Shown here one piece after another: positions 2,220 through 53,132 of a stretch of 64,000 nucleotides of DNA (positions within the stretch are counted from its first letter, which is position 1; each line of letters starts with the position of its first letter). Origin of the DNA: a candidate division BRC1 bacterium ADurb.Bin183 (GTDB taxonomy: Bacteria; Sumerlaeota; Sumerlaeia; MWCT01); assembly GCA_002070185.1 (NCBI GenBank), contig MWCT01000001.1:267110-331109 (forward strand), given 5' to 3'. The notes below the pieces were generated by a model. The model was given only the letters and a program-made list of their open reading frames with translations. It had not been told where the DNA came from and searched no databases. Both the position numbers and the translations under genes were made by a program.

Positions 2220-2375
2220 AAGGAGGGCGCGCCCATGAAGGAGATGAAATGCGCTCAGACTATCATCGGCGCCGCCTCCCCGAAATCGTTGAGCAAGTTT
2301 TTCGCGCCCTCCGAATTTGGAGGCAGGCGCAATCAGGATATTTCGCTCAATACCTTTTGACGGAGAAAAACAAGG

Positions 2376-3221: not shown

Positions 3222-3229
3222 TTAGATTA

Positions 3230-7530: not shown

Positions 7531-7617
7531 TGAATAAAAGCCCCGCCGATGTTTTGTTTGGCTCATCATCGGAGACTCTTTCTTTAAATGGTTTGTTGAT
7601 TTACTCCATGTATTTTA

Positions 7618-29788: not shown

Positions 29789-29996
29789 TGAACGTTTATT
29801 AGGTCTTATTCATGCGGCGACAATTTGGCTTTAATGCAGCTGTCCTGATTTTGGGATGCGCGTTTTGCGCCTCCTGATAACTGGGCATCTGCTGATGCGA
29901 AAATAAAGCGGCTTGCCGAATACGGCAACTTATATTTTTGAATCATTCCTTTGTTGTCTTGACTCCCATCGGGCGTTGTTTTATCACCTTTTCATC

Positions 29997-31283
29997 ATGG
30001 TGGATAACGTTCAAAGAGACCGCGCCGAGCGCAAGAATTCGTGGCTTTATGGACTCATGGTGTTGATTTTGGTGTTTGGTCTTGCCGTGCTTATATATCT
30101 TGAACGGCAGATAGTTTCCGACCGCCGCATCGCCTTTGAAAATGCCGCCACTCTTTTAAGTCGGGAACTCGTGCTGAAAAATCCGGATAATGTCCGCATC
30201 TCTTCCGACGGGCTTAAAACGCTTGCGGCAACAATCCGCAAAAATCCTTTCATCAAAGATATCTATGTTTCAAAAATAATTGCCGGACGCGGCGAGCATA
30301 TCGTTTTCCCCTTTCATTACGAAACGCTTCTGCCGCCTCGGAAAAAAAACTTAAAACGCCTCATTCGGGCGCCGCTTGAGGAAAATGGAAATGTTTGGGG
30401 CTATCTTTATATTGAACCGAATAATAACATCATTGTAAGCGTGCGGGCGGCAGCGGCGGCTTTTTCCCTGCTGCTAATACTCTCGCTTGTCTCCTTTTAC
30501 AGGCGCGTCCACACGCAGGAGCGGGTCATCACGGAAACCTCATTCGCCCTTGATGAACGCCGGCGCGAATTAATCCGTCTGGAACGCCTTGCCCTTGCAG
30601 GAATGCTCACTGCCAACATCCTCCACGATATTAAAAAACCTGTTTTGAACATCAAGCAGGAGGCGCAGGACATGGAGCGCCAGCCCGATGAAAAAACGGC
30701 GCGGGCGGCGGCGCGAAGCATTCAGGAACAGGTGGAACTTTTTTTCAACATCCTGCGGGATTTGGGGTTGGAACGGTTTGTGAAGGCGCGCGAGGGCGGC
30801 GAGGAGTTTGTGGATGTGAATGAAATTTTGGAACGCGCCTGCCGCCTTGTGCGCTATGAATGCGGAAGCTCGGAAGTGGTTTTTGATTTGGCGGAAAAAC
30901 TACCCGCCCTGTTAGCCCGCCCGACCAGACTGATTCAACTATTTTCCAATTTGATTCTGAATGCATTTCAGGCGATGAAAGGAAGCGGGAAACTCGCCAT
31001 ACGCACAGCATTTCAAGACGGCGCGATTCATGTTGAAATAACCGACACGGGTCCCGGCATTCCGCCCGAGTTGATAAAAAAGATTTTCAATCCGTTTTTC
31101 AGCACGCGGGGCGGAGAAACCGGCGGAGAGGAAGGCTCCGGACTCGGGCTCTTTATCTCCAAAAATATTGTGGATGACATGAAGGGCGAATTGCGCGTTG
31201 AAAGCGCTCCCGGCAAAGGCGCAAAGTTTGCGGTTGTTCTGCCCGTTCATTCTCAAAACGAAAAGGAAGCGCAAAAAATATAA
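29997..31283 (+). CDS. Sensor histidine kinase
   Basis: Track ORF starts at TTG 29913; ATG at 29997. N-terminal TM helix, H-box (LAGMLTANILHDIKKP) and HATPase_c motifs (ITDTGPGIPPELIKKIFNPFFSTR, GSGLGLFISKNIV). Confidence 0.75.
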   Translation: MVDNVQRDRAERKNSWLYGLMVLILVFGLAVLIYLERQIVSDRRIAFENAATLLSRELVLKNPDNVRISSDGLKTLAATIRKNPFIKDIYVSKIIAGRGEHIVFPFHYETLLPPRKKNLKRLIRAPLEENGNVWGYLYIEPNNNIIVSVRAAAAAFSLLLILSLVSFYRRVHTQERVITETSFALDERRRELIRLERLALAGMLTANILHDIKKPVLNIKQEAQDMERQPDEKTARAAARSIQEQVELFFNILRDLGLERFVKAREGGEEFVDVNEILERACRLVRYECGSSEVVFDLAEKLPALLARPTRLIQLFSNLILNAFQAMKGSGKLAIRTAFQDGAIHVEITDTGPGIPPELIKKIFNPFFSTRGGETGGEEGSGLGLFISKNIVDDMKGELRVESAPGKGAKFAVVLPVHSQNEKEAQKI

Positions 31284-31285
31284 AT

Positions 31286-32704
31286 ATGAAAGACAAACCC
31301 GCCATATTGCTTGTTGAGGATGATGAAGCGTATGCTCGCCGGCTTGGGCGGAATCTTGAAATGGACGGCTTTGAGGTGGAGATTGCCTTTGGCGGTAAAG
31401 CCGCGCTCGAAACCCTTGCCCGCGCCTCTTTTGACCTTATCATCACCGACGTCAAAATGCCCGACCTCAACGGTATGGATTTGATCGAGATTATCCGCCG
31501 CGAAGGTCATCCCGGCGTGGAGCCGGACGTCCCCATCGTGGCGTTATCCTCAGTCAATTCTGTGGATACCGCAGTCGCCTGCATGAAACTCGGCGCCGCC
31601 GATTACATCACAAAGGAATCGGAACGTCCGGAAATAGTCCTTCGTCTGAAAAAGGCGCTCGAACAGGAACGTCTGCGGACGGAAAACCGATACCTGCGCG
31701 ACCAGCTGGCGCAGTCCAATGAGTTCAACGAATTTATCGGCGAGAGCGAAGCCATCCAGCGCATCAAACAGGAGATTGCCGACCTATCGCGTCAGGCGGT
31801 CTCGGTGATTCTTATGGGCGAAACGGGCGTGGGCAAGGAGCTCGTGGCGCGGGCGCTGCACCATTTGCGTGGCGCACACGCCGGTCCGTTTGTGGATGTG
31901 AACTGCGCCGCTCTGCCGGATGACAGCTTGATTCAATCTGAATTATTCGGGCACGAAAAAGGGGCGTTCACGGGAGCGGACGCCATGCGCAAAGGCAAAT
32001 TTGAATTGGCGGAAAACGGCAGTCTTTTTCTGGATGAAATCTCCGAACTGTCGCGCAACTCTCAAGGCAAACTCTTAAAGGTTTTAGAAAATCGGACATT
32101 CACCCGCCTTGGCGGCACAAGGGAAATCAAAGTCAATTGCCGGTTCCTCTTTGCCACAAACAAGGATTTATTTCAGGAAACGCGCTCGGGTCGTTTTCGA
32201 GAAGACCTTTATTATCGTGTGAATATTTATCCTATTGTCATCCCTCCGCTTCGGGAACGCCGCGAAGATATCGCCCCGCTGGCGCGGTTTTTCCTCTCGT
32301 TTTTTTGCCGCCGTTATAATAAGCCCGTCAAAAAATTGGAGCCGCGCGCCTTCGACCGGCTCATGTCCCATCCTTGGCTCGGCAACGTGCGCGAATTGCG
32401 AAATATCATAGAGCGGCTTGTGATTCGCGCGCCGGGGGAGGAAATCACGGCGGCGGATCTGGTTTCTTGCGGATTGGCGCTCGAGCCCGGGCGCAGCGGA
32501 ACGGTCATCTTGCCGCCGCAGGGCGTGCACTTAGACCAGCTGGAGGAGGACTTGACTCGTCAGGCGCTGGAGCGCGCCGGATGGAATCAGAAAAAAGCCG
32601 CCGACCTGCTCGGCATCTCCGTTGACCGCATGAACAGCCGCGTCCGCAAATACGGACTCACTCATCCCTCATGGCTGAAACACAAACCGTCTTTGAATGA
32701 TTGA
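31286..32704 (+). CDS. Sigma-54-dependent response regulator (NtrC/AtoC family)
   Basis: REC domain (ILLVEDDE...[14 protein letters not shown]), AAA+ sigma-54 activator motifs ([30 protein letters not shown]) and a C-terminal Fis-type HTH. Starts 3 nt after the kinase stop. Confidence 0.85.
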
Positions 32705-32712
32705 TATATCCT

Positions 32713-34020
32713 TTATCCGCCCAGCAGCGGAGAGTATTTGGCGGAGAGGCACAAGCCCGCAACAGCGGCTGTTTGGAAACAGGCAAGGTTCGCCGCCAAA
32801 AGCGCGCGCGGTCCCAACGCCACCAAATCCTTCCGCCGCTCCGGCGCCAGCGCCGCCGTCCCGCCCACGAATATCGCCATCGCCGCCACGTGCGCAAATC
32901 CGCATAATCCATAAGCGGCAATCACCGCAGCGCGCCGGCTTAAGCCCGCCTTTATAGCATCGCCCAGTTGAATATAGGCGGGCACCTCTGTTGCGACGGC
33001 GCGCAAACCCCAGAGGCGCGCCACAGTTTCCGATTCCGCCGCGTTCAACCCGCACATCCGCACAATCGGATAACATAACCAGCTCAACATCCGTTCAATC
33101 GAAAGCCCCTGCACGCCCAGACGCGTCCCGCCATAACCGATAACGGCGTTGACAAGCGAGAGAATGCCGAGGAACGCAATCAAAAGCCCGCAGATGCCGA
33201 TGATTAATTTCACGCCTTCCATAGCCCCTTGAAGCGCGGCGTCCATGATGCTTGCCGGCGGCGCGCCCTCCGATGTGAAAATATCGCGCCCGACGCGGAC
33301 GCTTTTGCCCAGCGTCAGCGGTTGTTCCTCCTCTGGATATAGCACCTTTGCCATCACAGCCGCCGCCGGCGCGGAGAGCAGCGAGGCGGAAATAAGATGC
33401 GCCGCAATGTTGGGCATCTGTTCCTTGAGTATCAGCGTATAAAATCCCAGCACAGACGAAGCCAGCGTCGCCATTCCCGCCGTCAAAAGCAGATGCAGCT
33501 CGGACATGGTCATCTTTTGCAAATAGGGGCGAACGCCAAAAACTGATTCAATCCCCGTAAAAATATTATTTGCCGTGACCAGCGATTCCGCGCCGGATGT
33601 TTTTAACAAACGGCTGAAAACCCATGCGAAGAATCCCACCACCCGAGGCATAATGCCCACATAATATAGAATGGACATCACCGAAGCCACAAAGATGATA
33701 ATCGGAAATCCCTGAAAAAAAAGGAAAAAGCCGAGCGATTGCTCGCCGCTGCTGCCGGTCTGTCCGGGCGGCACGGCAAGAGCGCCGAAAATCAGCTCCG
33801 CCCCTTTTCGCCCATGCGAAAGCGTCTTATCCACAAGGATGTTGATTTTTTGAAAAGCAAAACTTCCCGCGCTCGACTGCAGAAAAAAGGAGGCGATGAC
33901 AATCTGCAACGCAATGCCCATCAGCGCCGTTCTCCATGGAAACTTCCGACGATTGCGCGAAAATACCCACGCCAGCCCAACCAAGAAAATGACGCCCCAC
34001 AAACTTGCCAGACGCTCCAT
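32713..34020 (-). CDS. Nucleoside transporter, NupC/CNT family
   Basis: 435-aa polytopic membrane protein whose length and hydrophobicity pattern resemble concentrative nucleoside transporters. Confidence 0.55.
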   Translation of the reverse strand: MERLASLWGVIFLVGLAWVFSRNRRKFPWRTALMGIALQIVIASFFLQSSAGSFAFQKINILVDKTLSHGRKGAELIFGALAVPPGQTGSSGEQSLGFFLFFQGFPIIIFVASVMSILYYVGIMPRVVGFFAWVFSRLLKTSGAESLVTANNIFTGIESVFGVRPYLQKMTMSELHLLLTAGMATLASSVLGFYTLILKEQMPNIAAHLISASLLSAPAAAVMAKVLYPEEEQPLTLGKSVRVGRDIFTSEGAPPASIMDAALQGAMEGVKLIIGICGLLIAFLGILSLVNAVIGYGGTRLGVQGLSIERMLSWLCYPIVRMCGLNAAESETVARLWGLRAVATEVPAYIQLGDAIKAGLSRRAAVIAAYGLCGFAHVAAMAIFVGGTAALAPERRKDLVALGPRALLAANLACFQTAAVAGLCLSAKYSPLLGG

Positions 34021-34174: not shown

Positions 34175-34457
34175 TCGGGAAAAGAAAGGGTTGAGCCTTG
34201 CTTTTTTTGGCGAAAGAAAGAGTGCGGCATCGCTGATATTTCCCGCGCCCCCTCTTATAATCTCAGATTAACTCCTGATATGTTTGTCGAGAAAAATCAA
34301 AAAAGGTTTACTTAATCGAAAAAATTATTCGGCTTCTTTGGGGAAACATGTTGAATTGTAATTTTTCGCAGTTGTAGAAGAATAATAAATTCTGGATATT
34401 CCGTTTTAAGCATGCAAACCCACCGCCAAACCGAGTGCATGCGGAAAGGATCAAACA

Positions 34458-36638
34458 ATGAAGGAAAAATTGAACATCAGACTCATTATCATTGCCGCTT
34501 ATTTCATCGCCGCGGCTCTTATGCTGCCGGCGCAGCCGCCCGTCGGGGAGTTTTCGTTTCTCCATGTGAGCGACTCGCATATTTCTTATAGCTTTGAAAT
34601 GCCGCAACAATGGGACAACCTGCGCAGCTATGCCTGCATCAGCACCATCAAAAACCTTGGCAACGTTGAAATGCCCGCTTATAAAACGACCGCCCCCGCG
34701 CCTTCTTTCATCATCCATACCGGAGATGTGTCCGAGTTCGGTTTTGCGGGCGTAACGCAGCAAATTGTGAAAGAATATTTCAAGGGGTTCAAAGGCGAGT
34801 TTTATTACGTTCCGGGCAATCATGACAACACGTGGGTCAGCGATATGGCGTATATGCGCAAAAAATACGGCGGAATGAATTATTCCTTTGATTACGGCGG
34901 TTGCCATTTTATCGGACTTTCCAGCGCCACATTGCAAGACCCGGTTCCCTCCTTCGGCAGAGAGGTTATCCTTTTTGTGCAAAACGATTTAAAAAAAGTG
35001 AATCCTCAAACGCCTGTGTTTGTCTATTTTCATCATCCGTTGGATAGCAACGAATTTTGTTCTCCTTACGATCCCGCCCGCCTTGTAGATTGCCTGCGCG
35101 GACACAATATCGCATTGATTCTGGACGGGCACGGACATCAGGCTGTGAAGCATAATTTCTGGGGACTGGACGGCATAGAGGGCGGCTCCCCCTTTGCCGC
35201 CGGCAAGGCGCGGACGGAAGGCTTTAATATTGTGTATGTGAAAAACAACGAACTTTATGCGGCTTATAAATTATGCTCGGAAACAAGCGCTACAAAGGCG
35301 CTTGTTCAGAAAAAAATCTTTCCCTCTGAGCCATATCCGGAGATAATTGTCCGCTCCCCTTCCGAAGATTTGATAGTCGGCGATGGATATCTGCCCCTTG
35401 ATATCGAATATCATGCCCATGCCGCGCCCGCCGTTAAAGCCTCCTTCATTTTGGATGACGATACAACCGGAGAGCTGAACATAAAAAATTCCCGCATCCA
35501 CGGCAATGTCGCCGTCGGTTCTTTATGCAACGGCGTTCACAATATGCGGGTTAATATTACGGATGCCGCCGAAAAAAAGTTTGAGAAGAGTCTGCAGTTT
35601 ATTGTTGATAAACCGCTCGCGCCAAAAATGGGGCAGGGGAAATGGCGTTTTCGGATGAACGGGGCGTCAAAAGCCGCGCCGCTTCTTCTTGGCGGCGTGG
35701 TTTATGCCGGCTCGAATGACGGCTTTTTTTACGCGGTGAACGCCGAAACGGGTGAATTGAAATGGTCGTTTGATGCCGGCGCGGAAATCCTTGCCTCCGC
35801 CGCCGCATGGCAGAATCTGATTCTCTTCGGCGCGGGCGATGGAAAGTTCTATGCCCTTACCCCCGCAAAAGAAGTGAAATGGACTTATGATGTCGGTGTC
35901 GCCATTTATTCATCCCCGGTTGTGGATGAAAACGGTACGGTTTATTTTGGAACAAACGACGCCCGTCTTATCGCCCTTGATGCCGCATCGGGAAAACCTG
36001 TCTGGACTAACAGCGACGCTCGGCTATGCGTGGAATCCCAACCCTTTGTTCGGGGCGACCGCGTATATTTCGGCGCGTGGGATGGTTACCTTTATTGCCT
36101 GAACCGCAAGGACGGCAAGATGATTTGGAAAAAGCCGGGACCCAAAAACCAAAGCCGCGTCAACACCTACTACGCCCCTGCCGATAACGGTCCCGCCGCG
36201 ACCGATGCCGCAATATATCTGACAGACCGCGGTTATATTGCCGGACAATACGCGCTTGACGGTTCATACGTCAAAACTCTGGACGAAAAATGCTCCGCGC
36301 TTGCGCTTTCGGCTGATGGAAAAGCCCTTTATCTGCGCAGACTGAGCGAGCCAGTCAAAAAAATCAATGCCGACACAGGCGCCGATATCTGGGAATCTAA
36401 AGTTACCGCCGGGCGCATCCCCGTCTCGCCGATGGAAAAGGACGGCGTCCTTTATGTGTGCACCAATTCCGGACGCCTTTATGCCCTTGACGCACAATCC
36501 GGCGCGGTGCGATGGGAATATCAGGTAACGCCCAAGTTGTATGTTATGTCCGGAGTTGCCGTTGCCGGCGATAAAATCGTCTATACCACAGACATGGATG
36601 GCGTGATAACCGCCATCGAGCCTTGGCGCGAGAAATAA
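34458..36638 (+). CDS. Secreted metallophosphoesterase fused to a PQQ-like beta-propeller domain
   Basis: Signal peptide; calcineurin-like phosphoesterase motifs (LHVSDSH, HTGDVSE, GNHDNTW, GHGH); C-terminal repeated PQQ/BamB-like blades (e.g. VVYAGSNDGFFYAVNAETGELKW). Confidence 0.65.
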   Translation: MKEKLNIRLIIIAAYFIAAALMLPAQPPVGEFSFLHVSDSHISYSFEMPQQWDNLRSYACISTIKNLGNVEMPAYKTTAPAPSFIIHTGDVSEFGFAGVTQQIVKEYFKGFKGEFYYVPGNHDNTWVSDMAYMRKKYGGMNYSFDYGGCHFIGLSSATLQDPVPSFGREVILFVQNDLKKVNPQTPVFVYFHHPLDSNEFCSPYDPARLVDCLRGHNIALILDGHGHQAVKHNFWGLDGIEGGSPFAAGKARTEGFNIVYVKNNELYAAYKLCSETSATKALVQKKIFPSEPYPEIIVRSPSEDLIVGDGYLPLDIEYHAHAAPAVKASFILDDDTTGELNIKNSRIHGNVAVGSLCNGVHNMRVNITDAAEKKFEKSLQFIVDKPLAPKMGQGKWRFRMNGASKAAPLLLGGVVYAGSNDGFFYAVNAETGELKWSFDAGAEILASAAAWQNLILFGAGDGKFYALTPAKEVKWTYDVGVAIYSSPVVDENGTVYFGTNDARLIALDAASGKPVWTNSDARLCVESQPFVRGDRVYFGAWDGYLYCLNRKDGKMIWKKPGPKNQSRVNTYYAPADNGPAATDAAIYLTDRGYIAGQYALDGSYVKTLDEKCSALALSADGKALYLRRLSEPVKKINADTGADIWESKVTAGRIPVSPMEKDGVLYVCTNSGRLYALDAQSGAVRWEYQVTPKLYVMSGVAVAGDKIVYTTDMDGVITAIEPWREK

Positions 36639-36649
36639 GGAGAAAAACC

Positions 36650-37969
36650 ATGAGCCAGCCACAAACGCCCGGCTTGCTTGCGCAACCCAAAAAGCGCATC
36701 GAGTCCATAGACGCCTTTCGCGGTTTTACTATCCTTGCCATGTTATTCGTCATTCAGGTAGCGGGATACCGCAACCTCCCTCTCACCTTTCCGCATTTCA
36801 ATAGCGCACCTGTCTCCACATTCAAACATGCGGGGGAAGATGGCGACGCGCGGGAGTGGGCATTCTGGGAGGGCAAAAAACACTCCGCCATTTATCGCAA
36901 TGCAAAAATCGAATCTAAGATTTCCAATACCGTTTATAACGTTGCCCTTTTGGATGAAAAAGGCAATATTGAAAAAACATACGAAAAAGCAAAAGTTGTC
37001 CACGCCAAACCCCTTGCCAAAGGCGACGCCATCATCGCGATAAATCGCCCCGGCGCGGCGCAGCCGGAGTTCCGCGGCATAGGCAACGGCTGCACATTCA
37101 CAGACCTTGTCGCCCCGTTTTTTGTTTTTATTGTGGGGCTGTGCATCCCTTTGAGCAAACAGCGGCGCGGGATGGCTTGGTGGAAACATGTGGGGACGCG
37201 CACGCTGCTTTTGATTCTTGCGGGCGTTATCTATATCTCGCTCATCTTAAAAACCTCCTACTGGTGGGGCATTCTGCAAGCCATCGGTGTCTCCTATTTC
37301 ATGGGCGCGGCATTTATGCGTTTGCCTGCAAAGGGGCGTTGGGTTGCCATCGCCGCCATCGCCGCCTTCCATGCCTTTATGTCATGGAAATTTAATTGGT
37401 GGCTGGAACTGGGCGACAAGAGCCGTCCTTTTTTAACCATCGGCAACCTTTCGGGCGATCCGCTCCGTCCGCTGACCGTCCACTGCACGCCGTGGGCTTC
37501 CATCTCTTACGGACTTTGCACTATAGCAGGCACGCTTCTGGGCGATGCCATCGTCACACGCGACCGGAGAAAAATCATTCGGCAGAGCCTGATTGTGGGA
37601 ATTGTTTTTTCCGCGGCGGGCTATCTGCTTCATCTTTATCAAGCGCCGATGAACAAGGATTATGTCTCGCCTTCCTATTCCATTTTCACCTCCGGCATCG
37701 GCGCGCTCACGTTTTTGCTTTTTTACGCAATCATAGACATTGGCGGGTTCAAGGCGTGGGCGTTTCCGCTGAATGTGTTCGGCGCGAACGCCCTCCTTGC
37801 ATACTTCATGCAGCCGGTGGTGCGGATATTTATCCGCGCGCTGGGCTTCCTTGAATTCTTCGGCAATCAAGCCGGATGGAGCGGCGTCTATGCCGGACTC
37901 CTCTGGACGGCTCTCCTTTGGTGTGTTGTCCTTTGGTGCAACAAAAAAGAAATTTATTGGAAATTATGA
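36650..37969 (+). CDS. Membrane acyltransferase-like protein, HGSNAT/DUF1624-like
   Basis: ATG at 36650 with AGGAG RBS. IESIDAFRGFTILAMLFV is typical of the heparan-alpha-glucosaminide N-acetyltransferase catalytic (DUF1624) family. There is an unusual ~110-aa hydrophilic insertion between TM1 and TM2, then ~9 TM helices. Confidence 0.5.
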   Translation: MSQPQTPGLLAQPKKRIESIDAFRGFTILAMLFVIQVAGYRNLPLTFPHFNSAPVSTFKHAGEDGDAREWAFWEGKKHSAIYRNAKIESKISNTVYNVALLDEKGNIEKTYEKAKVVHAKPLAKGDAIIAINRPGAAQPEFRGIGNGCTFTDLVAPFFVFIVGLCIPLSKQRRGMAWWKHVGTRTLLLILAGVIYISLILKTSYWWGILQAIGVSYFMGAAFMRLPAKGRWVAIAAIAAFHAFMSWKFNWWLELGDKSRPFLTIGNLSGDPLRPLTVHCTPWASISYGLCTIAGTLLGDAIVTRDRRKIIRQSLIVGIVFSAAGYLLHLYQAPMNKDYVSPSYSIFTSGIGALTFLLFYAIIDIGGFKAWAFPLNVFGANALLAYFMQPVVRIFIRALGFLEFFGNQAGWSGVYAGLLWTALLWCVVLWCNKKEIYWKL

Positions 37970-40900
37970 ACAAGCCGCTTATCCATTTTTTGTTGGCAAC
38001 CAATTTTCTTTTATTGCTTTTTTTTGAATCGAATGCGGCGGTGCTGGTTAAACTGGAGCCGGCGGGAGAAGGCAAAGGCGCGGAGGCGCGCACCCTGCTC
38101 ATGCGCAAGGGGGCGGCGCATGTTCGCTCTTTTTCGCATATTGGCTGGGAATCGTGGTCGCCGCCAAAGGGGATGTCCGATGAAACCTTCGCGGATGCCA
38201 TCGCCCATCTTCCCGGTGTAAAAAAAGTTCAAAAGCCCGTTCGCATTCAATTATTTGATGTGTTCCCCAACGACCCGGCATTTTTCAAATGGCAGTGGGC
38301 GCTCTATAACGAGAACAAGCCGGAATACGATTTAGATGCTCCCGCCGCATGGGACATCGCAACCGGCTCGCCGGATATTGTTGTCGCCGTTATTGACACC
38401 GGCATTGACCCCACCCACCCCGACCTCATCCCCAACATCTGGACGAACCCGCTTGAAATTCCGAATAACGATACGGATGACGACGGCAACGGTTTTATAG
38501 ATGACGACATGGGTTGGGATTTTGCCAACAACAACAATCTCCCTTATGACAATCTGGGGCATGGGACGCACGTCTCCGGCATCATCGGCGCGGCGGGAAA
38601 TAATGGCATCGGAATTTGCGGCGTCAACTGGAACGTCTCGCTCCTCACAATCAAGACGTTCGAAGGGCGCGAGGCGACCGATGAACAGATTTTGCCCGCT
38701 TTTGATTACATCCTTGGTCTGGGTCAAAAGGTTCATGTGATTAACGCCAGCTGGGGCGGTTCAACTCCTTCGCTGGCGATGCGCGACGCCATCGCCGAAT
38801 GCGGCAGACGCGGCATCCTTTTAATTGCGGCGGCGGGCAACGAAAAGGTCAATACGACGGAAAATCCAATGTATCCCGGTGCCTTTGACCTCCCCAACAT
38901 AATCACAGTCGGAGGCTCCACAAAGGATGGATTCAAATATACAAACACAAATTTTGGACCTTTTGTGCATATATGCGCGCCCGGTGATATGATTTACAGC
39001 GCCTATCCCCAGCCCACGCTTTATGGGACTCTCAGCGGCACGTCAATGGCGGCGCCCCATGCGGCAGGCGCTGCGGCGCTTCTCCTTTCCGAACGCGGCA
39101 GCCTTTCCCCTGAATATATACGAAATCTTTTCATCGGCAGCGCAAAGCCGGTTGCGTATCTTTCGGATATTTCCCTCTCGCAGGGTTTGCTCAATCTCCC
39201 CGCCCTGTTTGCGGAAGATGGCTCTCCGCCGCAGCCGGCGGCAAACGCCCGCATAGACGGAGTCGGGCTGACAACGGCAACGTTCTCTTTTGAGCTGCCC
39301 CTTGATGACGCTCCGGAGGAACTGGCGCGCATTGTGGAGTGGCGATACTCGACCGCGCCCATCAGCGAAGAAAATTGGTGGAACGCCGTCCGCATCCCCG
39401 CCATTCTCCCGCAGGGGGCGCCGCAGGGAAGATGGCAAACGATTAACGCGGACAGACTCGAGCCGGATACCCTTTATTATTTTGCCGCGCGCAGTCTTGA
39501 TGAAGGCGGGAATGTTTCGCCTGTTTCCATCCCTTTGACCGCGCGCACCGCGCCCGCTGAGCTTATTTGGCTGGAGGATTTTGAAAACGGCGCGCCCGAT
39601 TGGCAATTGATGCCGGGATTTTGGGATGTTGCCACATCGCCCAGCCTTGCCGCCAACGGCAGCAGATTTTTGTTTCATCCTGAACGAATGGGCGAATATC
39701 CGCTGATTGATGACGCTGTTTCGCCGCTGATTGATCTGACCGTTTGCGCGGCTCCCTATCTTTTTTTCCGGCATCAAAATGAATTTTTTGGTTTTCAACG
39801 TTTGACCAATGAAGGCTTGGTTGAAGTTCGAGCGGAGGGGGCTGCCAACTGGGAGAGTATTGCATCGTATAAAATGTTTTATTATCCGTGGCGGACGGAC
39901 TGCCTTTCTCTGGGCAAATGGCGCGGACGGCGCATTCATGTGCGGTTTCGTTTCAGACATGTTTTTTCCTCCGGCGATTTGAATGATGAAATTGGATGGT
40001 GGATTGACGACGTCCGCATCCTTGACGCCCGCCCCTCAATTTTTGCGGATTGGAAAAGCGCGGGAGAGATACCGCCTTTTGAGCCGCCCGATTATTGCGC
40101 CGCGGGCGGATGTCTTGAAATGCAGGTCAACTCATCGAACACATACGGGTTTTGGTATAAGGAAGGCGCAATTGAGTATGCCGAGCCCAACACCCTTTAC
40201 CGCGCGCGGTTCGGCATTCGCAGCGACCAGCCCGACCCCGCGCGCACGCCCACATTCCGCATCCGCCACAACGCTTCCAACTTTATGCAGGGCGACTCCC
40301 TTACCATTAACAGCAACGATGCAGGCGAATCTTCCTGCGGCGCCGCCTTCAAGGATTACGACCTTTATTTTCAACCGCAGGGCGATGCCCTTGCGCCCGG
40401 CGTTAACGGCGCGCTCTCCTTTGATGTGATGAACGTTGCCAATCTGACGGACGCCGAATCGGCAAAACTTGTTTTAGGTTATGTTGAAGTCGAGCGATTC
40501 CCCATAGAATCTTTGGGTGAGCCGCTGAGCCGCCATCTTTACACATTTGATAGCGGGCATGAAATGTGGACGCCTTCGCCGGCGCTCGGCGCTTTTGACG
40601 CCCCTGATTTCAGCTGGGAAGAGAGCGGCGGATTTTTAATAATGCGCAGCGCGGGCAATACCAATTGCTACGGTTTTTGGCAAAATAGCCAAACCGAATT
40701 GAGCCTGCGGCGGGATGCGCTATATCAATTGCGCGCGCGAGCCGGCGGAGCGGGCGATCCCGCAAAAGCCGTAGCGGCGCCGACCATGCGGATTCGCGCG
40801 TATGACCATCCGAATAATCACGCCGTCGCCGTGTTTCAATCGCCCGTCTGGCGAAAATATGAGCAGCCGAGTTCGGAGGGAACCGCCGTTTATGTCTTGA

Positions 40901-41049
40901 ATGATTATTACGCTTTTTTCCACAACCGGCAGGGCGCAGGCGAGCATCTGGGGATAGCCGTTGAACTCATCAACCTTGACGCGCTTGCGCCATCGGATGC
41001 CGCTATCGGCGTTGATGAAGTTGAAATAATCGCCTTTCCGCTTCCCTAA
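37966..41049 (+). CDS. Secreted subtilisin-like serine protease (peptidase S8) with large C-terminal extension
   Basis: ATG at 37966 overlaps the upstream stop (ATGA). Signal peptide MNKPLIHFLLATNFLLLLFF; catalytic triad motifs VAVIDTGID, HGTHVSGIIG and GTSMAAPHAAG. About 650 aa of extra C-terminal beta-rich domains. Confidence 0.85.
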   Translation: MNKPLIHFLLATNFLLLLFFESNAAVLVKLEPAGEGKGAEARTLLMRKGAAHVRSFSHIGWESWSPPKGMSDETFADAIAHLPGVKKVQKPVRIQLFDVFPNDPAFFKWQWALYNENKPEYDLDAPAAWDIATGSPDIVVAVIDTGIDPTHPDLIPNIWTNPLEIPNNDTDDDGNGFIDDDMGWDFANNNNLPYDNLGHGTHVSGIIGAAGNNGIGICGVNWNVSLLTIKTFEGREATDEQILPAFDYILGLGQKVHVINASWGGSTPSLAMRDAIAECGRRGILLIAAAGNEKVNTTENPMYPGAFDLPNIITVGGSTKDGFKYTNTNFGPFVHICAPGDMIYSAYPQPTLYGTLSGTSMAAPHAAGAAALLLSERGSLSPEYIRNLFIGSAKPVAYLSDISLSQGLLNLPALFAEDGSPPQPAANARIDGVGLTTATFSFELPLDDAPEELARIVEWRYSTAPISEENWWNAVRIPAILPQGAPQGRWQTINADRLEPDTLYYFAARSLDEGGNVSPVSIPLTARTAPAELIWLEDFENGAPDWQLMPGFWDVATSPSLAANGSRFLFHPERMGEYPLIDDAVSPLIDLTVCAAPYLFFRHQNEFFGFQRLTNEGLVEVRAEGAANWESIASYKMFYYPWRTDCLSLGKWRGRRIHVRFRFRHVFSSGDLNDEIGWWIDDVRILDARPSIFADWKSAGEIPPFEPPDYCAAGGCLEMQVNSSNTYGFWYKEGAIEYAEPNTLYRARFGIRSDQPDPARTPTFRIRHNASNFMQGDSLTINSNDAGESSCGAAFKDYDLYFQPQGDALAPGVNGALSFDVMNVANLTDAESAKLVLGYVEVERFPIESLGEPLSRHLYTFDSGHEMWTPSPALGAFDAPDFSWEESGGFLIMRSAGNTNCYGFWQNSQTELSLRRDALYQLRARAGGAGDPAKAVAAPTMRIRAYDHPNNHAVAVFQSPVWRKYEQPSSEGTAVYVLNDYYAFFHNRQGAGEHLGIAVELINLDALAPSDAAIGVDEVEIIAFPLP

Positions 41050-41100: not shown

Positions 41101-44100
41101 TTATTTTTTTGCGCCGGCAAGGGAAAGAGCCATCGCTTTTATGGCGCGCAGGTCGAGTTTGCCCGTTCCTAAAATCGGCAGGGCTTCCACGCGGAAAAAG
41201 TCGCTCCATTTGGGAATCCAGAGCGGCGGCAGCCCCATATTCTGAATCTCCTCCGCTGCCCGCCGCGCTTTCTCCTCCCGTGCGGCATATAAAACAACGA
41301 GCCGTTCGCCTTTTTTTTCATCGGGAACACCGGTTACCGCAAAAATCATGTCGGTTGCGCCGATGGCGTTGTGGAGCGTCTCTTCGATCCGAATGTGCGG
41401 CGCCATCTCGCCGCCAATCTTGGAAAATCGCGAAAGCCTGTCTGTGATGGTGATGAACCCTTCTTCGTCAATCTGCGCAATATCCCCTGTAACATACCAC
41501 CCATCTTTCATAACCTCTGCGGTTTTTTCCGGCAGATGGTAATATCCGTGCATGATATTATGCCCGCGAACATGCAGCATTCCGGGTTCATTGACGCCGA
41601 GCGGCGCGCCGGTTTCCGGGTCAACAACGCGCACCGTCACGCCGGGTGCGGGATGCCCGACCGTTCCATATTTCACGCCTTTTTGATAAAAGGACGGTTG
41701 GCGGAAATCGGGTGTGTTGAGGCAGACGATGGGGGAGCATTCCGTTGCGCCGTAGCCTTCTATCGGGCGGATGCCGAATCGTTTTTCAAACGCCTCTGAG
41801 ACGTTGGCGCGCAGCTTTTCCGCGCCGGTCAGCGCCATGCGGAGCGAACCGAATTGCTCCGGCTGGACGCGCCGCGTGTATATGTTCAAAATGGTGGGCG
41901 TTGCGAAAAGATGCGTGATTTTATGTTTCTGCACAAGCTCTCCTATCTCGCGCCCATGAAGCGGGTTCGGGTGGTATATCACCCGAAACCCTGTCAGCAT
42001 CGGCAGCCAGAGCGCCACTGTGTTTCCGAACGAGTGGAAAAATGGAAGAATGCCCAGCAGGCATCCATCAGGCGGAAAATCCACCATGTGATAAGCCGAT
42101 GCGACATTTGCCCAGATGTTCCAATGCGTGAGTTCCACGCCTTTGGGCGCGCCGGTGCTGCCGCTGGAAAAAATAATCGTGGCAACATCGTCCATTGATG
42201 CGGATTTTTTTCTGCCAAGCAGTTTATCAAACGAGTTGGTTTTTTGCCGGATAAAAATATGAAAAAAGGCTTTGGATGTATCCCAGAATGAGATTTCGTT
42301 TCGAATATCTTCAAGGTAAACAATATCGCATTTTGCGGGGAGGGCGATTTTGATTTTTTTCATGAACAAACGCGATGTGATAATAAGGCGGATGCCCGCA
42401 TTGGCGCAGATTTCCTCGATAACGGCAGCGGCGGCGGTGTAGTTCAGATTGATGGGGATGCGCCCCGACCATGTTGCGGCAAGATTCGTTGCTGCCGCGC
42501 CTGCGGACGGCGGAAGCAAGATGCCGATATTTTCATCGTCCTGCCATTTGCGGCGGAGTTTCCTCCCCAGTGCAATCGTCCCCGCCAGCATCTTATACTG
42601 GGCAAACGAACCATTGCGCAGAGTGTTGACCGCTTCCAGATGCAAAGGCAGCGCGCGCTCTTTACGTATGGCAAAGGCGTCCACCATCAAATCCATAATC
42701 GCGACGCGCAATTGCGGATGTTTTGTATCGGCGGGCATCGGCTTTCCGAAGACAACGCACAAAACCGGCTTTTTTGCCCGAGGATTAAAAAAGATGGGTT
42801 TTCGGCGACCGCCCGGCAGCGCAAAGATTGTTTCATAAGCGCCGTCAATCGCCGCAGGGATAATCGGCTCTTGGATTCCCCGCATGATATGCTCAAAACC
42901 GCGGCGGAATGGCAGCATCATTCCCAACCGCGTCATCTGACCTTCTGGGAAGATGCAGACCAGCCCGCCTTGGCGGATCTCCTCGCGAGCCTCCCGCAGC
43001 GCCTTTATCAAATCCCTAACGGAGCCCAGCCCTTTTATGGGAATTGTGTTCGTTATTCGGGCAAAGGGATAGATAAACCATTTGCGGTATAGGTCTTCCG
43101 TCATAATAAAACGTACAGGGCGCTCGATGACGACGCTTAATAAGAGGGCGTCTATATAGGACTGATGATTCGATGTTATGAGCGCGCCGCCTTTGGCGGG
43201 GATATTCTCCGCGCCCTTCACGTTCACACGGTAAATCATTTTGAAAAGAACAACCGCAAGGAAACGCAAAGGGATGCGCGGGAATTTGACGCAAATGACA
43301 ATCCCTGTCAAAAGCATGAGAACCCCGCCCGCAAAAAACACATCCCCCGGAGAAGCGGTCGCCTGAACTATTAACCCCCTTGCGCCCGCCCCCGCCATCA
43401 TCCCAATGGAGGTGAACACATTAGAAACCGACCAGACGCCGCCGCGTTTATCGGGGCGAGTTTCCTGAATCACAAACGCCTGCAGAGGCACAATGAAAAA
43501 ACCGCAGACCAGACCGACAAGCCCCATCATCGCAGGGACAATGTATCGAATATGCTGCAACTGTTCCGAGCTCATGCGGCTCAATTCCGCAAAATTTGGC
43601 GTCAGCCGCCACACCAGCATCGAGGCGGAAAACATCGCCAGCGCGCCGAACGGCACAAGTCCCAACTCGATCCGATTCTTTGAAACCATCCCGGCAAGAA
43701 CGCACCCCGCCCCCATGCCCACCACAATCGGAAGCAACGCCAGCCCTGTCTGAGACGGAGATAAACCCAACACCTGCACCGCAATCAGCAACGCCGCTCC
43801 CTGCATCATCACGCCCGCCATCCACCAGACGCTCATGCCCACCACGCCCCACAAAATTCCCGTGTTGGAAAGAATTTCACGTCCATATAGGGAGACCATC
43901 GGAACGGGATTGATTTCGAATCGCTGCGCGGGATTGCCGACCGGCGTGGGCGCCATTTGAAGGGCAAGCAAAGCTCCCCCTCCCGCAAGCCCAACAAGAA
44001 TCAATCCATTAATCCAAAGCGATTGATTAAAACATTGAAAAAGCGACGGTCCAAGAATCGTACCCAAAATGATGGCAAGAAACGTCCCGCCCTGAAGGAT

Positions 44101-44574
44101 GCCATTCCCCCATGCCGTTTGCTCCTCCGGCAGAATCTCCGGCAGGATGCCGTATTTGGACGGGCTGAAAAGAGCGGATTGGAATCCCATGAAAAAGAGA
44201 ACAATAATAGCTCCGGAAATATAACCCAGCGCAAACATCGCCATCCCCGCCGCCATCACAATAATTTCCAGAATCTTTGTCCATAGGGTTACGCGGCTTT
44301 TGGCAAAACGATCGGAAAGCCAACCGGCAATGGTTGCGCTTACAATAAAAGGCAGAATAAACGCACCCTCCGCGATGGATGTCCATGTATTTCCCAGCGC
44401 GGTGGCATCTGATGGCGATTGCGGAAACCGCTCGTTGGCGTGTTTCAGAATCAGCATCATCACAATAAATTTGAAAATGTTGTCGCTCAGCGCGCCTTGA
44501 AACATCACGCCAATGAGCGCCCAGAAGGAGCGCAGGCTTCTTGGTTGAGGGAAGGGTTGTTTCGCGTCATTCAT
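41101..44574 (-). CDS. Tripartite fusion: MFS lysophospholipid transporter (LplT-like), 1-acyl-glycerol-3-phosphate acyltransferase-like (PlsC-type) domain and acyl-ACP/acyl-CoA synthetase (AMP-binding) domain; Aas-like
   Basis: Track ORF extends to 44715; probable start is ATG at 44574 (MNDAKQPF). N-terminal ~420 aa is a 12-TM MFS domain; the middle has the acyltransferase NHxxxxD motif (SNHQSYIDALL); the C-terminus has the AMP-binding signature IFSSGSTGAPKGV. Confidence 0.75.
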   Translation of the reverse strand: MNDAKQPFPQPRSLRSFWALIGVMFQGALSDNIFKFIVMMLILKHANERFPQSPSDATALGNTWTSIAEGAFILPFIVSATIAGWLSDRFAKSRVTLWTKILEIIVMAAGMAMFALGYISGAIIVLFFMGFQSALFSPSKYGILPEILPEEQTAWGNGILQGGTFLAIILGTILGPSLFQCFNQSLWINGLILVGLAGGGALLALQMAPTPVGNPAQRFEINPVPMVSLYGREILSNTGILWGVVGMSVWWMAGVMMQGAALLIAVQVLGLSPSQTGLALLPIVVGMGAGCVLAGMVSKNRIELGLVPFGALAMFSASMLVWRLTPNFAELSRMSSEQLQHIRYIVPAMMGLVGLVCGFFIVPLQAFVIQETRPDKRGGVWSVSNVFTSIGMMAGAGARGLIVQATASPGDVFFAGGVLMLLTGIVICVKFPRIPLRFLAVVLFKMIYRVNVKGAENIPAKGGALITSNHQSYIDALLLSVVIERPVRFIMTEDLYRKWFIYPFARITNTIPIKGLGSVRDLIKALREAREEIRQGGLVCIFPEGQMTRLGMMLPFRRGFEHIMRGIQEPIIPAAIDGAYETIFALPGGRRKPIFFNPRAKKPVLCVVFGKPMPADTKHPQLRVAIMDLMVDAFAIRKERALPLHLEAVNTLRNGSFAQYKMLAGTIALGRKLRRKWQDDENIGILLPPSAGAAATNLAATWSGRIPINLNYTAAAAVIEEICANAGIRLIITSRLFMKKIKIALPAKCDIVYLEDIRNEISFWDTSKAFFHIFIRQKTNSFDKLLGRKKSASMDDVATIIFSSGSTGAPKGVELTHWNIWANVASAYHMVDFPPDGCLLGILPFFHSFGNTVALWLPMLTGFRVIYHPNPLHGREIGELVQKHKITHLFATPTILNIYTRRVQPEQFGSLRMALTGAEKLRANVSEAFEKRFGIRPIEGYGATECSPIVCLNTPDFRQPSFYQKGVKYGTVGHPAPGVTVRVVDPETGAPLGVNEPGMLHVRGHNIMHGYYHLPEKTAEVMKDGWYVTGDIAQIDEEGFITITDRLSRFSKIGGEMAPHIRIEETLHNAIGATDMIFAVTGVPDEKKGERLVVLYAAREEKARRAAEEIQNMGLPPLWIPKWSDFFRVEALPILGTGKLDLRAIKAMALSLAGAKK

Positions 44575-44608
44575 TGGCGAAAAATCATGCTGAAACAAAC
44601 CTCGCGGT

Positions 44609-47110
44609 TCAAGGAAATATTTCAATCGCCGCAGTTCCCAGAATGTCGTCGCCGTTGAAGCGGAAGAAAATTTCCGATAGCCCCGTTTTTTCTGGCATGG
44701 CGAGCTCGAAATCAAAAAGGGCGCAGTCGCCCGCCCCCACGGTTCGCTCCAGCGGGATATTATGAAGAATGTTCGTCTGATTGTTCCGGCGAATTTCCAA
44801 AATCAATTTCCGCCCGCTGTCCCATGCATCCCAGCCGTCGTTGCGCACGGCAATCTGAACGCGCCTTATCTCTCCTACCTTTGCCCGCGGCGGCAAGGTA
44901 TCAAAGAGGCAGGAGGCAAACCCCTGATTTTTTCCGCCGAGGCGCAGCCGCGTCAAATAAGAGAACATCGCCGCATCGCAAATAACGTAATTAAGGTCCG
45001 GACGTTCTTCAATCAATCGGCGGTTGAGCGCCTGATAATAGGGGATGTCTTTGAGCACGCTGCGGAAAATAAGAAAGCGTGTTTCTCCCGCCTTTGCCCG
45101 CGCGTGAATTTTTACGGCATCCTTCGCCGTATTGCCGGAAAGGTCTTCGCACATCACATAGACCGGCATATTCTCAACAAGATGAAGCGGGGCATATTCA
45201 AATTCCATCTGCTGCACAACGCCCCCGCGTGAAAAGGGGAGGAACATCCGAACCGAATTTGGCGTGATAGTTCCCGCCCTTCCATTAATCAGAAATCCCG
45301 TAAAGTTGTAACCGAATTTTTGATAATAATATCGGCAATGCGATTGCCAAAGAGCGTCCGCGGCGGGCGCGCCGGAGGGCTCCCTTGGCGGCAGCAGCTG
45401 CGTGACATTCACATACCCCGCGCCGGAGTCGCCGGAAATAAAAACGTCCTGCGCTGTGCGTGTGCGATAGGCATATTCAAAAAACTGCCGCGCACGCTCG
45501 GAAAGATTGGGATTGACCGCCCAAGACATTTTCAGACTGCCGCGTTCGGGGGCGTCCCATCGGCTAAAGAGCGAGTTGACCGTCCACGCCGCCGCATCGT
45601 AATCGCCCACATAATGCAATAGATATGTTTTTGCCGCAGGGGCGCCCTTTTCATCAAGGAGACCTTGCCTCCGCAGCTCCTCCTCCATAGGCGGCAGCGG
45701 CTGCGCGTATCGGCTCGGCAGCGGCAGATGCTGGAAGACGGAGGCATTTGCCAGCGCCGAAAGATGCAGCGCATCGGCGTCAATATAGGCATTATAGGCG
45801 GAAAGAATCCGCACCGTTTCCCACTCCGTCTCCACGCCGCCGCGGCGTCCGCCCGCGCCTTTGGAGTCCGTGTATTTGAATGCCCAAGGCGTGAACCCGC
45901 CCACATGAATAAACGCGCGGTGATTGCTCAGACGGAGCGATTCGGCGAGGATTTCTTGCAGGATTTTGAAATCCGACCCAAGAGGTTGGCAGGGATCATC
46001 AATCGGCGTTTCATCCGCCCAGACGGATAAATCCCAGAAGAAGCCTTTATGCGAAATAAAATAATCATGATTCGTCAGCGTGTGATTTTGAAAATCGTGC
46101 CCCGGCGCCGGATTTTTTATCCAGAAAGAGTCAATATAATAGCCCTGATAAAGCGGATTGCACAAACCCGTTTTGAGATATTTTTCCATCGCCCAAATGT
46201 AGGCGTCGCACTTTTTCGACCCGGTGGAAGTGCGGTTTGTGTCCGGAATCATGCTCCTGCCTGTAAATTTGTTGCAAAGGTCGAGCCGCACGGGCAGGTT
46301 TATTTTGCCGGAAATTAACCGCTGATAGAGCGAATCGGGCGAAGGGTTTTTGGGAATGGGCAAGAGATTTTCCGCGCCCGCCGCTGTGGAGGCAACGTTG
46401 GACGTGGCGGGAACATCCGGATCCCAAAGAACAACGCCGTTTATTTCATCGGCAAAAATTTTCACAAGCGACTCAATATCGCCAACCGGTTTCAATGTTA
46501 TTTTTTCCAGCCAGCAGCCGGGCTCCCGCATGCGGCGCAGCCAGTATTCATCCACATTTTCTTTTGCAAGCTCGCTCTGAACAAAATAAACATAAAGGCG
46601 CGGATGGCGCCGGTTCGCGATTCCTTGCAACGCCGCCGCGAGATGCGCGTGTTCAAAAGCCCGCCACGCAGGCAGGGCGCGCGTGTAGCGCAAATCGTAT
46701 GTGTATAAAACACCGGCGGCTTGTTCGATGGGATGAATCCGAAACGGCGCGCGCCGCGCGCTCCACCCGCTCCAGCCCGCTGCAGAGCGCGCCCTTGCCC
46801 ACGTAAAAAGAGTTGTATGCTCGGGAAATTTTTGAGAGGATGTGAAAAAGAATTTTTCGCTTTGCATCTCGCCGGAGTCCCAGATAATTTCCGATTCCGG
46901 ACTCTCGCCGGATGTGATGCGGAGATGAAAAGCCTCGTGCGACTCGCCGCGCCATTCGATGCGCGGGGGATTGGCTGTCGAGATTCCCGCTGGCAACGCC
47001 ACAATGGGAGGCAGCGGTGGCTGAGCAGCGCAAATGGAATTTTCTGCCATAAAAAATCCTTTTCCAAAAAGTATGAGTAGAATTAGTATATACATATCCG
47101 CGCCTGTCAA
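44609..47110 (-). CDS. Hypothetical secreted protein (833 aa), possibly glycoside-hydrolase-like
   Basis: Long ORF with an N-terminal hydrophobic signal-like segment (MYILILLILFGKGFF). No confident family; the YVGDYDAAAW / GDSGAGYVN segments weakly recall GxGYxYP-type putative glycosidases. Confidence 0.4.
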   Translation of the reverse strand: MTGADMYILILLILFGKGFFMAENSICAAQPPLPPIVALPAGISTANPPRIEWRGESHEAFHLRITSGESPESEIIWDSGEMQSEKFFFTSSQKFPEHTTLFTWARARSAAGWSGWSARRAPFRIHPIEQAAGVLYTYDLRYTRALPAWRAFEHAHLAAALQGIANRRHPRLYVYFVQSELAKENVDEYWLRRMREPGCWLEKITLKPVGDIESLVKIFADEINGVVLWDPDVPATSNVASTAAGAENLLPIPKNPSPDSLYQRLISGKINLPVRLDLCNKFTGRSMIPDTNRTSTGSKKCDAYIWAMEKYLKTGLCNPLYQGYYIDSFWIKNPAPGHDFQNHTLTNHDYFISHKGFFWDLSVWADETPIDDPCQPLGSDFKILQEILAESLRLSNHRAFIHVGGFTPWAFKYTDSKGAGGRRGGVETEWETVRILSAYNAYIDADALHLSALANASVFQHLPLPSRYAQPLPPMEEELRRQGLLDEKGAPAAKTYLLHYVGDYDAAAWTVNSLFSRWDAPERGSLKMSWAVNPNLSERARQFFEYAYRTRTAQDVFISGDSGAGYVNVTQLLPPREPSGAPAADALWQSHCRYYYQKFGYNFTGFLINGRAGTITPNSVRMFLPFSRGGVVQQMEFEYAPLHLVENMPVYVMCEDLSGNTAKDAVKIHARAKAGETRFLIFRSVLKDIPYYQALNRRLIEERPDLNYVICDAAMFSYLTRLRLGGKNQGFASCLFDTLPPRAKVGEIRRVQIAVRNDGWDAWDSGRKLILEIRRNNQTNILHNIPLERTVGAGDCALFDFELAMPEKTGLSEIFFRFNGDDILGTAAIEIFP

Positions 47111-53113: not shown

Positions 53114-53132
53114 ACGAATTCGAGGGGAGCTT

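Follow-up and report, generated by a model that had tools for sequence, protein, structure and literature searches.

The 64,000-nucleotide (nt) stretch of contig MWCT01000001.1 analyzed here (hereafter called the "window"), from the Sumerlaeota bacterium ADurb.Bin183, contains three adjacent genes on the + strand. They encode an exported metallophosphoesterase-propeller (gene 1, 34458..36638, 726 amino acids (aa)), a ten-helix transmembrane acetyltransferase of the HGSNAT/DUF1624 family (gene 2, 36650..37969, 439 aa), and a secreted subtilase (gene 3, 37966..41049, 1027 aa). Our focus is on gene 2, which carries a predicted β-barrel between its two catalytic residues, and on its relationship with the two genes beside it. 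The open reading frames (ORFs) and their junctions were read directly, and the best start of gene 2 is the ATG at 36650, with a GGAG just ahead of it. These ORFs bear out the three-gene cluster described in the initial annotation, whose family guesses (Metallophos, PQQ-like propeller, HGSNAT_cat, and Peptidase_S8) were all correct according to the Pfam searches, and whose remark that the combination has no assigned role still applies to all three proteins. The ATGA overlap between the gene 2 stop and the gene 3 start (37966..37969) was given exactly, while the gap between the gene 1 stop and the gene 2 start is 11 nt (36639-36649), and not the claimed 12 nt. The start of gene 3 at the ATG at 37966 yields a signal-peptide-like N-terminus. 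In bacteria, no operon junctions are commoner than a 4-nt overlap and a short gap, and the tight coupling of the trio is therefore normal and unremarkable by itself.

Gene 2 encodes a transmembrane acetyltransferase and is a bacterial representative of the HGSNAT family. It matches HGSNAT_cat/DUF1624 (PF07786) with 36.4 bits against a cut-off of 22 (E 5.2e-9), and a profile of 96 gene 2 homologues matches human HGSNAT with an E-value of 3e-13. The AlphaFold model of gene 2, built on 96 homologues, has a predicted local distance difference test score (pLDDT) of 91.7 and a predicted template modeling score (pTM) of 0.90, and places the first and second transmembrane helices (TM1 and TM2) at residues 18-37 and 150-170, respectively. 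A Foldseek search with this model retrieved 13 human HGSNAT chains, with 8vli, 8vkj, and 8jl4 among the structures matched, with E-values of 1.7e-9 to 4.8e-8 and template modeling scores of about 0.57. The next-best structural match was the GWT1 acyltransferase (E 1e-5).

The catalytic residues of human HGSNAT are N286, H297, and D307, and the active site sits at the luminal opening of the acetyl-CoA pore (PMC11199644). His297 and Asp307 form the catalytic His-Asp dyad (PMC11199644), and Asn286 stabilizes the acetyl carbonyl. The equivalents of the dyad residues in gene 2 are His60 in the FKHA motif (codon at 36827..36829, + strand) and Asp152 in the TFTDLVAP motif (codon at 37103..37105, + strand), both of which are invariant in 96/96 homologues. 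F58-K59-H60-A61 of gene 2 is identical to F295-K296-H297-A298 of the human protein. The human FKHA sits in the 12 residues (288-299) between the aligned segments: the alignments match the human residues up to 287 with gene 2 up to residue 36, and the human W300-D307 with G145-D152. The FKHA and DLVAP motifs, together with many other residues, are invariant across the 96 homologues, which argues for a conserved active enzyme.

Gene 2 and human HGSNAT thus have in common the transmembrane catalytic fold and both dyad residues, the histidine of FKHA and the aspartate of DLV(A/F)P, and they also share the C-terminal motif (I/V)(Y/F)WK(L/I). In contrast, the N-terminal luminal domain and the extra first helix of the human protein are both lacking in gene 2, and the overall identity is just 16-18%. 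The His and Asp residues of the dyad, which are 10 residues apart in the human enzyme, are 92 residues apart in gene 2, owing to the inserted β-barrel. NagX (NF046061), the transmembrane glucosamine N-acetyltransferase of N-acetylglucosamine (GlcNAc)/chitin utilization loci, belongs to the same superfamily, and aligns with the C-terminal 150 residues of gene 2 (E 1.2e-14). Gene 2 is not a NagX equivalog, as it scores 54.2 bits against a cut-off of 480, over the C-terminal third only. No nag or chitin-utilization genes are adjacent to gene 2, no gene 2 paralogues were found in the window, and our search of the literature on DUF1624 found nothing relevant to its bacterial function.

The loop between TM1 and TM2 comprises ~112 residues in the AlphaFold model, as compared to ~13 in human HGSNAT, and the hydrophilic stretch of ~110 aa pointed out between these helices in the initial annotation is therefore real. 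Within this loop, an insertion of ~75 residues is placed between the catalytic His60 and Asp152. The inserted segment (residues 61-143; 36830..37078, + strand) consists of one helix (residues 67-74) and five strands (residues 82-143), modeled with pLDDT values of 95-98. With high confidence, it is predicted to form a five-stranded OB/Tudor-like small β-barrel on the membrane's outer face. A conserved acidic/aromatic motif, GEDG...EW, comes immediately after the catalytic His, and the conserved residues include E63, D64, and W70. Residues K14, K15, and R16 precede TM1, and this positively charged N-terminus, in combination with the topology of HGSNAT, suggests that the loop is extracytoplasmic.

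No Pfam family matches the insertion. An 82-aa profile of the insertion, searched against 1.84 billion representative proteins, matched 130 proteins, mainly long tandem-repeat proteins. Most of the matches scanned contain Tudor/Agenet/SGF29-Tudor repeats, and one of them has SprB repeats. These matches owe their significance to the summed repeats, and they support the fold class (small β-barrel) alone. Among the matches P0361-P0489 are very long proteins with 5-30 tandem Tudor/Agenet-like repeats; P0361, for example, has 7637 residues with 30 matched stretches.

How widespread is this insertion among the relatives of gene 2? We measured the distance from the His motif to the TFTD motif in 181 scorable homologues, which came from 79 genome loci as well as the protein search. 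This loop is 11-12 aa long in 70 sequences, 34 aa in 18 sequences, and 70-134 aa in ~93 sequences, and that of the window protein is 87 aa. The insertion, which the initial annotation did not associate with the family, is indeed unusual as compared to human HGSNAT and the Pfam model, but not as compared to its own relatives, since ~93 of the 181 carry 70-134 aa at this position, a prevalence that the annotation had named in advance as counter-evidence. Most of the long-loop forms are from Sumerlaeota, and a few belong to Methylomirabilia, UBP4, and unclassified bacteria, while the short-loop forms are from Bacteroidota, Ignavibacteriota, and, in two cases, Sumerlaeota. The short-loop sisters (~365-380 aa) possess the same catalytic motifs, and their core is 60-67% identical to gene 2 from residue 145 to the end. 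In contrast to gene 2, they have just the 11-12 residues between the two motifs and lack the barrel, and their neighborhoods are unlike that of gene 2 and also variable among themselves. A rough neighbor-joining tree puts the long forms at the base of the short-loop clade, with a clade of 38-aa loops outside both, an arrangement compatible with either gain or loss. The insertion-bearing transmembrane acetyltransferases to which gene 2 belongs form a subfamily that has no name, and in the literature searched, a folded barrel within the HGSNAT-like catalytic segment is undescribed.

The product of gene 1 starts with a signal-peptide-like N-terminus. This is followed by a Metallophos domain (PF00149; residues 33-228, 34554-35141, + strand; 52.6 bits against a cut-off of 21.5, E 1e-13) and by a PQQ/BamB-like β-propeller (approximately residues 390-720, 35625-36617, + strand; PQQ_2, E 1.4e-37), and the linker between the two may be immunoglobulin-like. 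The DxH, GD, GNH(D/E), H, and GHxH motifs are located at residues 39-41, 89-90, 120-123, 192-193, and 224-227, respectively, and the metal-binding motifs are all intact (D39-x-H41, D90, N121/H122, H192-193, and H225/H227). More than 100 protein clusters, from Sumerlaeota, Phycisphaerae, Armatimonadota, and other groups, show this architecture in full length and match gene 1 with 28-98% identity over at least 95% of its length. These proteins are often annotated as "PQQ-binding-like beta-propeller repeat protein" or "BamB". Gene 1 is not BamB, as its scores are far under the equivalog cut-offs, and we know of no characterized member of the Metallophos and PQQ-propeller family.

Gene 3 encodes a subtilase with a signal peptide, a pro-region, and an S8 catalytic domain (PF00082; residues 137-394, 38374-39147, + strand; 184.7 bits against a cut-off of 21.8, E 3e-54), in which the catalytic residues D144, H199, and S360, as well as N260, the oxyanion Asn, are present. 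The ~630 residues beyond the S8 domain have no Pfam match. Among them, a region of ~240 residues (451-690; 39316-40035, + strand) is common to the homologues, with 50% identity in the alignment, and we read it as an FN3-like domain plus a β-sandwich. Over the first 690 residues, the S8 subtilases of Sumerlaeota (~693-700 aa) share 50-58% identity with gene 3, of which they span the first 65% alone. They lack the lineage-specific C-terminal extension of 337 residues (691-1027; 40036-41046, + strand), which was found only in the two closest relatives, P0121 (97%) and P0122 (80%). Residues 451-1027 have no sequence match in the PDB, no Pfam match, and no internal repeat, and the extension shows no similarity to the high-scoring 1470-aa S8 proteins.

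The initial annotation had made its case for the trio depend on the conservation of the neighborhood, which is largely lacking, and by this standard its operon claim is mostly refuted: we found the trio only in the near relatives L086, L087, and L095. L087 and L095 are near-identical variants, with 98-99% DNA identity to the window, and are probably the same species. L095 (ERZ795047 NODE-1) has one mismatch to the window from 30650 to ~38612, and differs from it by ~1.5-2.5% from the middle of gene 3 onward (compared to 43965), with one indel near 41000. This sharp boundary is as expected from strain recombination or from a mosaic assembly of strains. In L086, a metagenome contig, the same trio occurs with the same 11-nt gap, the same gene 3 start, and the same ATGA overlap, and the protein identity to the window is 82% for gene 1, 93% for gene 2, and 79% for gene 3.

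The flanks of the trio differ between the window and L086. In the window, the cluster is bounded upstream by a divergent Na+/nucleoside transporter gene (32713..34020, - strand) and downstream by a convergent gene (41101..44715, - strand). The latter encodes a protein of 1204 aa in which an MFS transporter, a PlsC-type acyltransferase, and an AMP-binding (acyl-acyl carrier protein synthetase-like) domain are fused, as in lysophospholipid transporter/Aas-type lipid recycling proteins. In L086, an extra gene for a 1293-aa NosD/β-helix protein (503-4384) lies between the transporter gene and gene 1, where the window has intergenic DNA only (34200-34266), and a Pirin gene lies downstream of the trio, in the place of the Aas-like gene.

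We next consider the more distant relatives. The 79 species-level genome loci containing a gene 2 homologue, with up to 10 kb on each side, were searched by tblastn with gene 1 and gene 3 segments, and a relative of gene 1 or gene 3 near the gene 2 homologue was found in 0/79. The S8 match in L043 was generic, the Metallophos matches in L004 and L082-84 were weak, and there were no others. The trio was also absent from the other metagenome contexts examined, comprising eight of gene 2, four of gene 3, and three of gene 1. The gene 2 homologues with 63-78% identity are found in other contexts. In the sister lineage with 78% identity (L080, L081, and L068), a gene for a 603-aa protein and then an AP_endonuc_2 gene precede the homologue, and the genes flanking the homologue in L080 have no homologues in the window. 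For the homologues with 72% identity, the upstream neighbor is a Kelch propeller and the downstream one a convergent Metallophos gene, and those with 70% and 75% identity have yet different neighbors. Likewise, the gene 3 homologues with 55% identity stand alone, and the gene 1 homologues with 55-57% identity are followed by GT9 glycosyltransferase or GH123-like genes. In the Sumerlaeota metagenome-assembled genome CAZGKP01, the homologues of gene 1 and gene 2 are on separate contigs.

In a Pfam census of 94 neighbors from 15 independent long-form contexts, no family occurred more than three times; Metallophos occurred twice, and S8 was not recurrent. When the recurrent neighbors of the gene 2 homologues were clustered and scanned, only clade-specific synteny was found, none of it informing function: starch-synthase-like GT5 and DUF3078 in Bacteroidota, saccharopine or alanine dehydrogenases and an SNF2 helicase in KSB1 and Cytophagia, and PCuAC and a nitroreductase in Ignavibacteria. 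Gene fusion (Rosetta-stone) evidence was considered and rejected, as the apparently long gene 2 homologues in L009, L020, L043, and L071 are ORF-calling artefacts in high-GC DNA. The trio is not a conserved functional module, and as its families lie scattered in other genomes, they came together here recently.

We therefore lean, with some reserve, toward the explanation that the trio is a lineage-restricted set of probably co-transcribed, independent envelope enzymes, in which gene 2 is an HGSNAT-type enzyme with a barrel cap. The 11-nt gap, the 4-nt overlap, and the terminator counts are compatible with a single transcript, and the three genes are probably co-transcribed. No convincing internal terminator was found (18 terminator-like sites, as compared to 14.2 ± 4.1 in shuffled sequences), and neither the promoter-like nor the terminator-like sites in the region are in excess over shuffled sequence. 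Each of the three genes belongs to a family that is common in Sumerlaeota and also found outside it, and genes 1 and 3 represent separate families that were recently placed beside gene 2.

Acetyl transfer by gene 2, the mechanistic point with the best support, may proceed as follows. By homology to HGSNAT, acetyl-CoA would enter the pore from the cytoplasm. The His60-Asp152 dyad at the outer mouth of the pore would then transfer the acetyl group to the amino group of a sugar, probably of the glucosamine type, on a glycan outside the membrane. As the barrel is a self-contained domain, its two ends would be near each other, and the dyad would still be able to form. The barrel would cover the outer mouth and serve as an accessory cap for the binding or selection of a polymeric substrate, and it probably helps to bind an extracytoplasmic glycan. 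We propose this cap because the sister enzymes do without the barrel and because animal HGSNAT independently acquired a luminal domain. This extra domain has been proposed to aid polymer binding (PMC11199644). It would be analogous to the barrel of gene 2 in its role, although the two are not homologous.

Several points weigh against this explanation. First, human Asn286 aligns with Ile35, which is not conserved, and the next residue, Gln36, is Gln or Met in the homologues. As the Asn286 equivalent is lost, the chemistry of gene 2 may differ in detail. Second, the score with the NagX model is 54 bits against 480, and the substrate of gene 2 is deduced from homology. Third, the role of the barrel is inferred. 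Fourth, the 11-nt gap with its Shine-Dalgarno sequence and the ATGA overlap are kept in L086 though the flanks have changed, as expected of a unit under selection, and some functional link is therefore possible. Finally, stand-alone Metallophos genes adjoin the long-form homologues of gene 2 in two or more other contexts that are otherwise unrelated: the Metallophos gene of L012 (8209-9387) is separated from the homologue by 63 nt and shares its strand, and that of L082 (4486-5604; also in L083 and L084) is convergent. A further weak Metallophos match lies beside the long-form homologue in L004 (~7615-8124), and β-propeller proteins (FG-GAP, Kelch, and NHL) are encoded immediately upstream of some long-form homologues, including those in L005, L026, and L084. 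This recurrence is a faint hint of a loose association between the acetyltransferase and a phosphoesterase, and is not statistically convincing.

Does the barrel bind the substrate at all? Alternatively, it might serve as a plug or gate over the pore mouth, as an oligomerization surface, or as a site where a partner protein or the cell wall docks, which we regard as unlikely, although it deserves consideration. The position directly between the two catalytic residues would be ideal for gating, and the conserved GEDG...EW motif directly after the catalytic His would also suit such a role. In addition, the fold matches are OB/Tudor barrels of a generic kind, and such barrels are often involved in contacts with proteins or nucleic acids, besides sugar binding. 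However, the sisters with loops of 11-12 aa, despite the 60-67% identity of their cores, presumably work without such an element, and the insertion is therefore accessory, rather than a mechanistic necessity. The polymer-binding role proposed for the animal luminal domain (PMC11199644) also speaks for a cap that contacts the substrate.

Neither the trio nor any pair of its genes was found conserved beyond the closest relatives, not even in the sister lineage with 78% identity, whose conserved context is a different one, and we accordingly doubt that the three proteins constitute a true functional module acting extracellularly on one substrate. A glycoprotein or wall polymer that is phosphorylated and contains amino sugars could, for example, be this substrate. 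Its protein part would be cleaved by the subtilase, its phosphate would be removed by the phosphoesterase-propeller, and gene 2 would N-acetylate the exposed glucosamine, thereby enabling the action of ordinary hexosaminidases or the uptake of GlcNAc, as in the lysosomal breakdown of heparan sulfate. Consistent with this scheme, each of the three proteins is predicted to lie outside the cytoplasm or to be bound to the membrane, and the tight junctions kept in L086 while the flanks changed, the weak recurrence of Metallophos beside the long-form homologues, and the propeller genes immediately upstream of some of them may be cited in its support. Nevertheless, S8 never recurs among the neighbors, and no fusion proteins link the families. 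The two Metallophos genes among the 94 neighbors are, at a rough estimate, just marginally above the expectation for a common superfamily.

A further reading seems to us just as doubtful. Here, the insertion-bearing proteins would form a functionally distinct class of transmembrane acetyltransferases, in which the barrel recognizes or gates a polymeric glycan of the envelope or the environment, such as de-N-acetylated peptidoglycan, chitosan, or an exopolysaccharide. In the lineage of the window, the enzyme would work with the adjacent phosphoesterase-propeller, and the Metallophos partnership would be real, while loosely conserved.

Quite improbable is a different activity of gene 2, such as O-acylation, lipid/GPI (glycosylphosphatidylinositol)-type acylation as in GWT1, or a catalytically impaired state: the lost Asn286 equivalent, the GWT1 structure as the next-best match (E 1e-5), and the NagX equivalog score far under the threshold would fit it, but the invariance of FKHA, DLVAP, and many other residues in the 96 homologues and the much stronger matches to HGSNAT than to GWT1 argue against it.

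Upstream of gene 1, a non-coding block (34270..34375, + strand) is nearly identical between the window and L086, while the coding DNA there is ~82% identical, and this block may be a promoter or a leader. A sigma-70-like site, CTGATA-17-TATAAT (10/12 positions), is located just upstream of the block, at 34233-34261. The block has no Rfam match and no stable RNA fold (z 0.27), and a structured leader or riboswitch was rejected on these grounds; the whole window contains no Rfam matches and no tRNAs. The histidine kinase and sigma-54 activator genes (29913-32704), just beyond the nucleoside transporter gene, prompted us to consider a sigma-54 promoter for gene 1. This possibility was also rejected, as there is no consensus match on the + strand and the window has fewer matches than shuffled sequences. 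The only match with two mismatches, a sigma-54-like site on the - strand, TGGCGGTGGGTTTGCA (34413-34428), points at the nucleoside transporter gene; L086 does not retain it, and the window shows no enrichment of such matches.

The further neighbors of the trio are unrelated, and encode, besides the histidine kinase and the sigma-54 activator, ArgJ (arginine biosynthesis), a semialdehyde dehydrogenase, a pyridoxal phosphate-dependent enzyme, and a GxGYxYP hydrolase. Elsewhere in the window, a giant ORF (53061-62831, + strand) encodes a 3256-aa protein with multiple PKD repeats (up to nine matched stretches), NHL/Vgb-lyase-like propellers, F5/8 type C, and FlgD-Ig, which we presume to be a large adhesin of the cell surface or a large glycan-binding protein. 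The window also encodes, 16 kb from gene 2 (18746-20794, - strand), a 682-aa protein in which SASA carbohydrate-esterase and GH2_N domains are combined. The same SASA and GH2_N architecture is encoded in L072 (7967-9961), directly upstream of the gene 2 homologue.

There is nothing categorically new among the three genes, and their proteins are already in the public databases, as "PQQ-binding-like beta-propeller repeat protein", "DUF1624 domain-containing protein", and "S8 family serine peptidase". As a recent local arrangement, the operon itself carries little weight. To our knowledge, the bacterial HGSNAT/DUF1624 proteins are numerous and almost uncharacterized, and the mechanistic knowledge of the family comes only from the human lysosomal enzyme. 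The domain inserted between the catalytic residues of gene 2 shows where the HGSNAT fold tolerates elaboration, and the insertion-bearing subfamily provides a natural test of substrate selection outside the membrane. The Sumerlaeota are described as polysaccharide and chitin degraders, and an outward-facing sugar N-acetyltransferase could therefore matter for the recycling of amino sugars in these bacteria.

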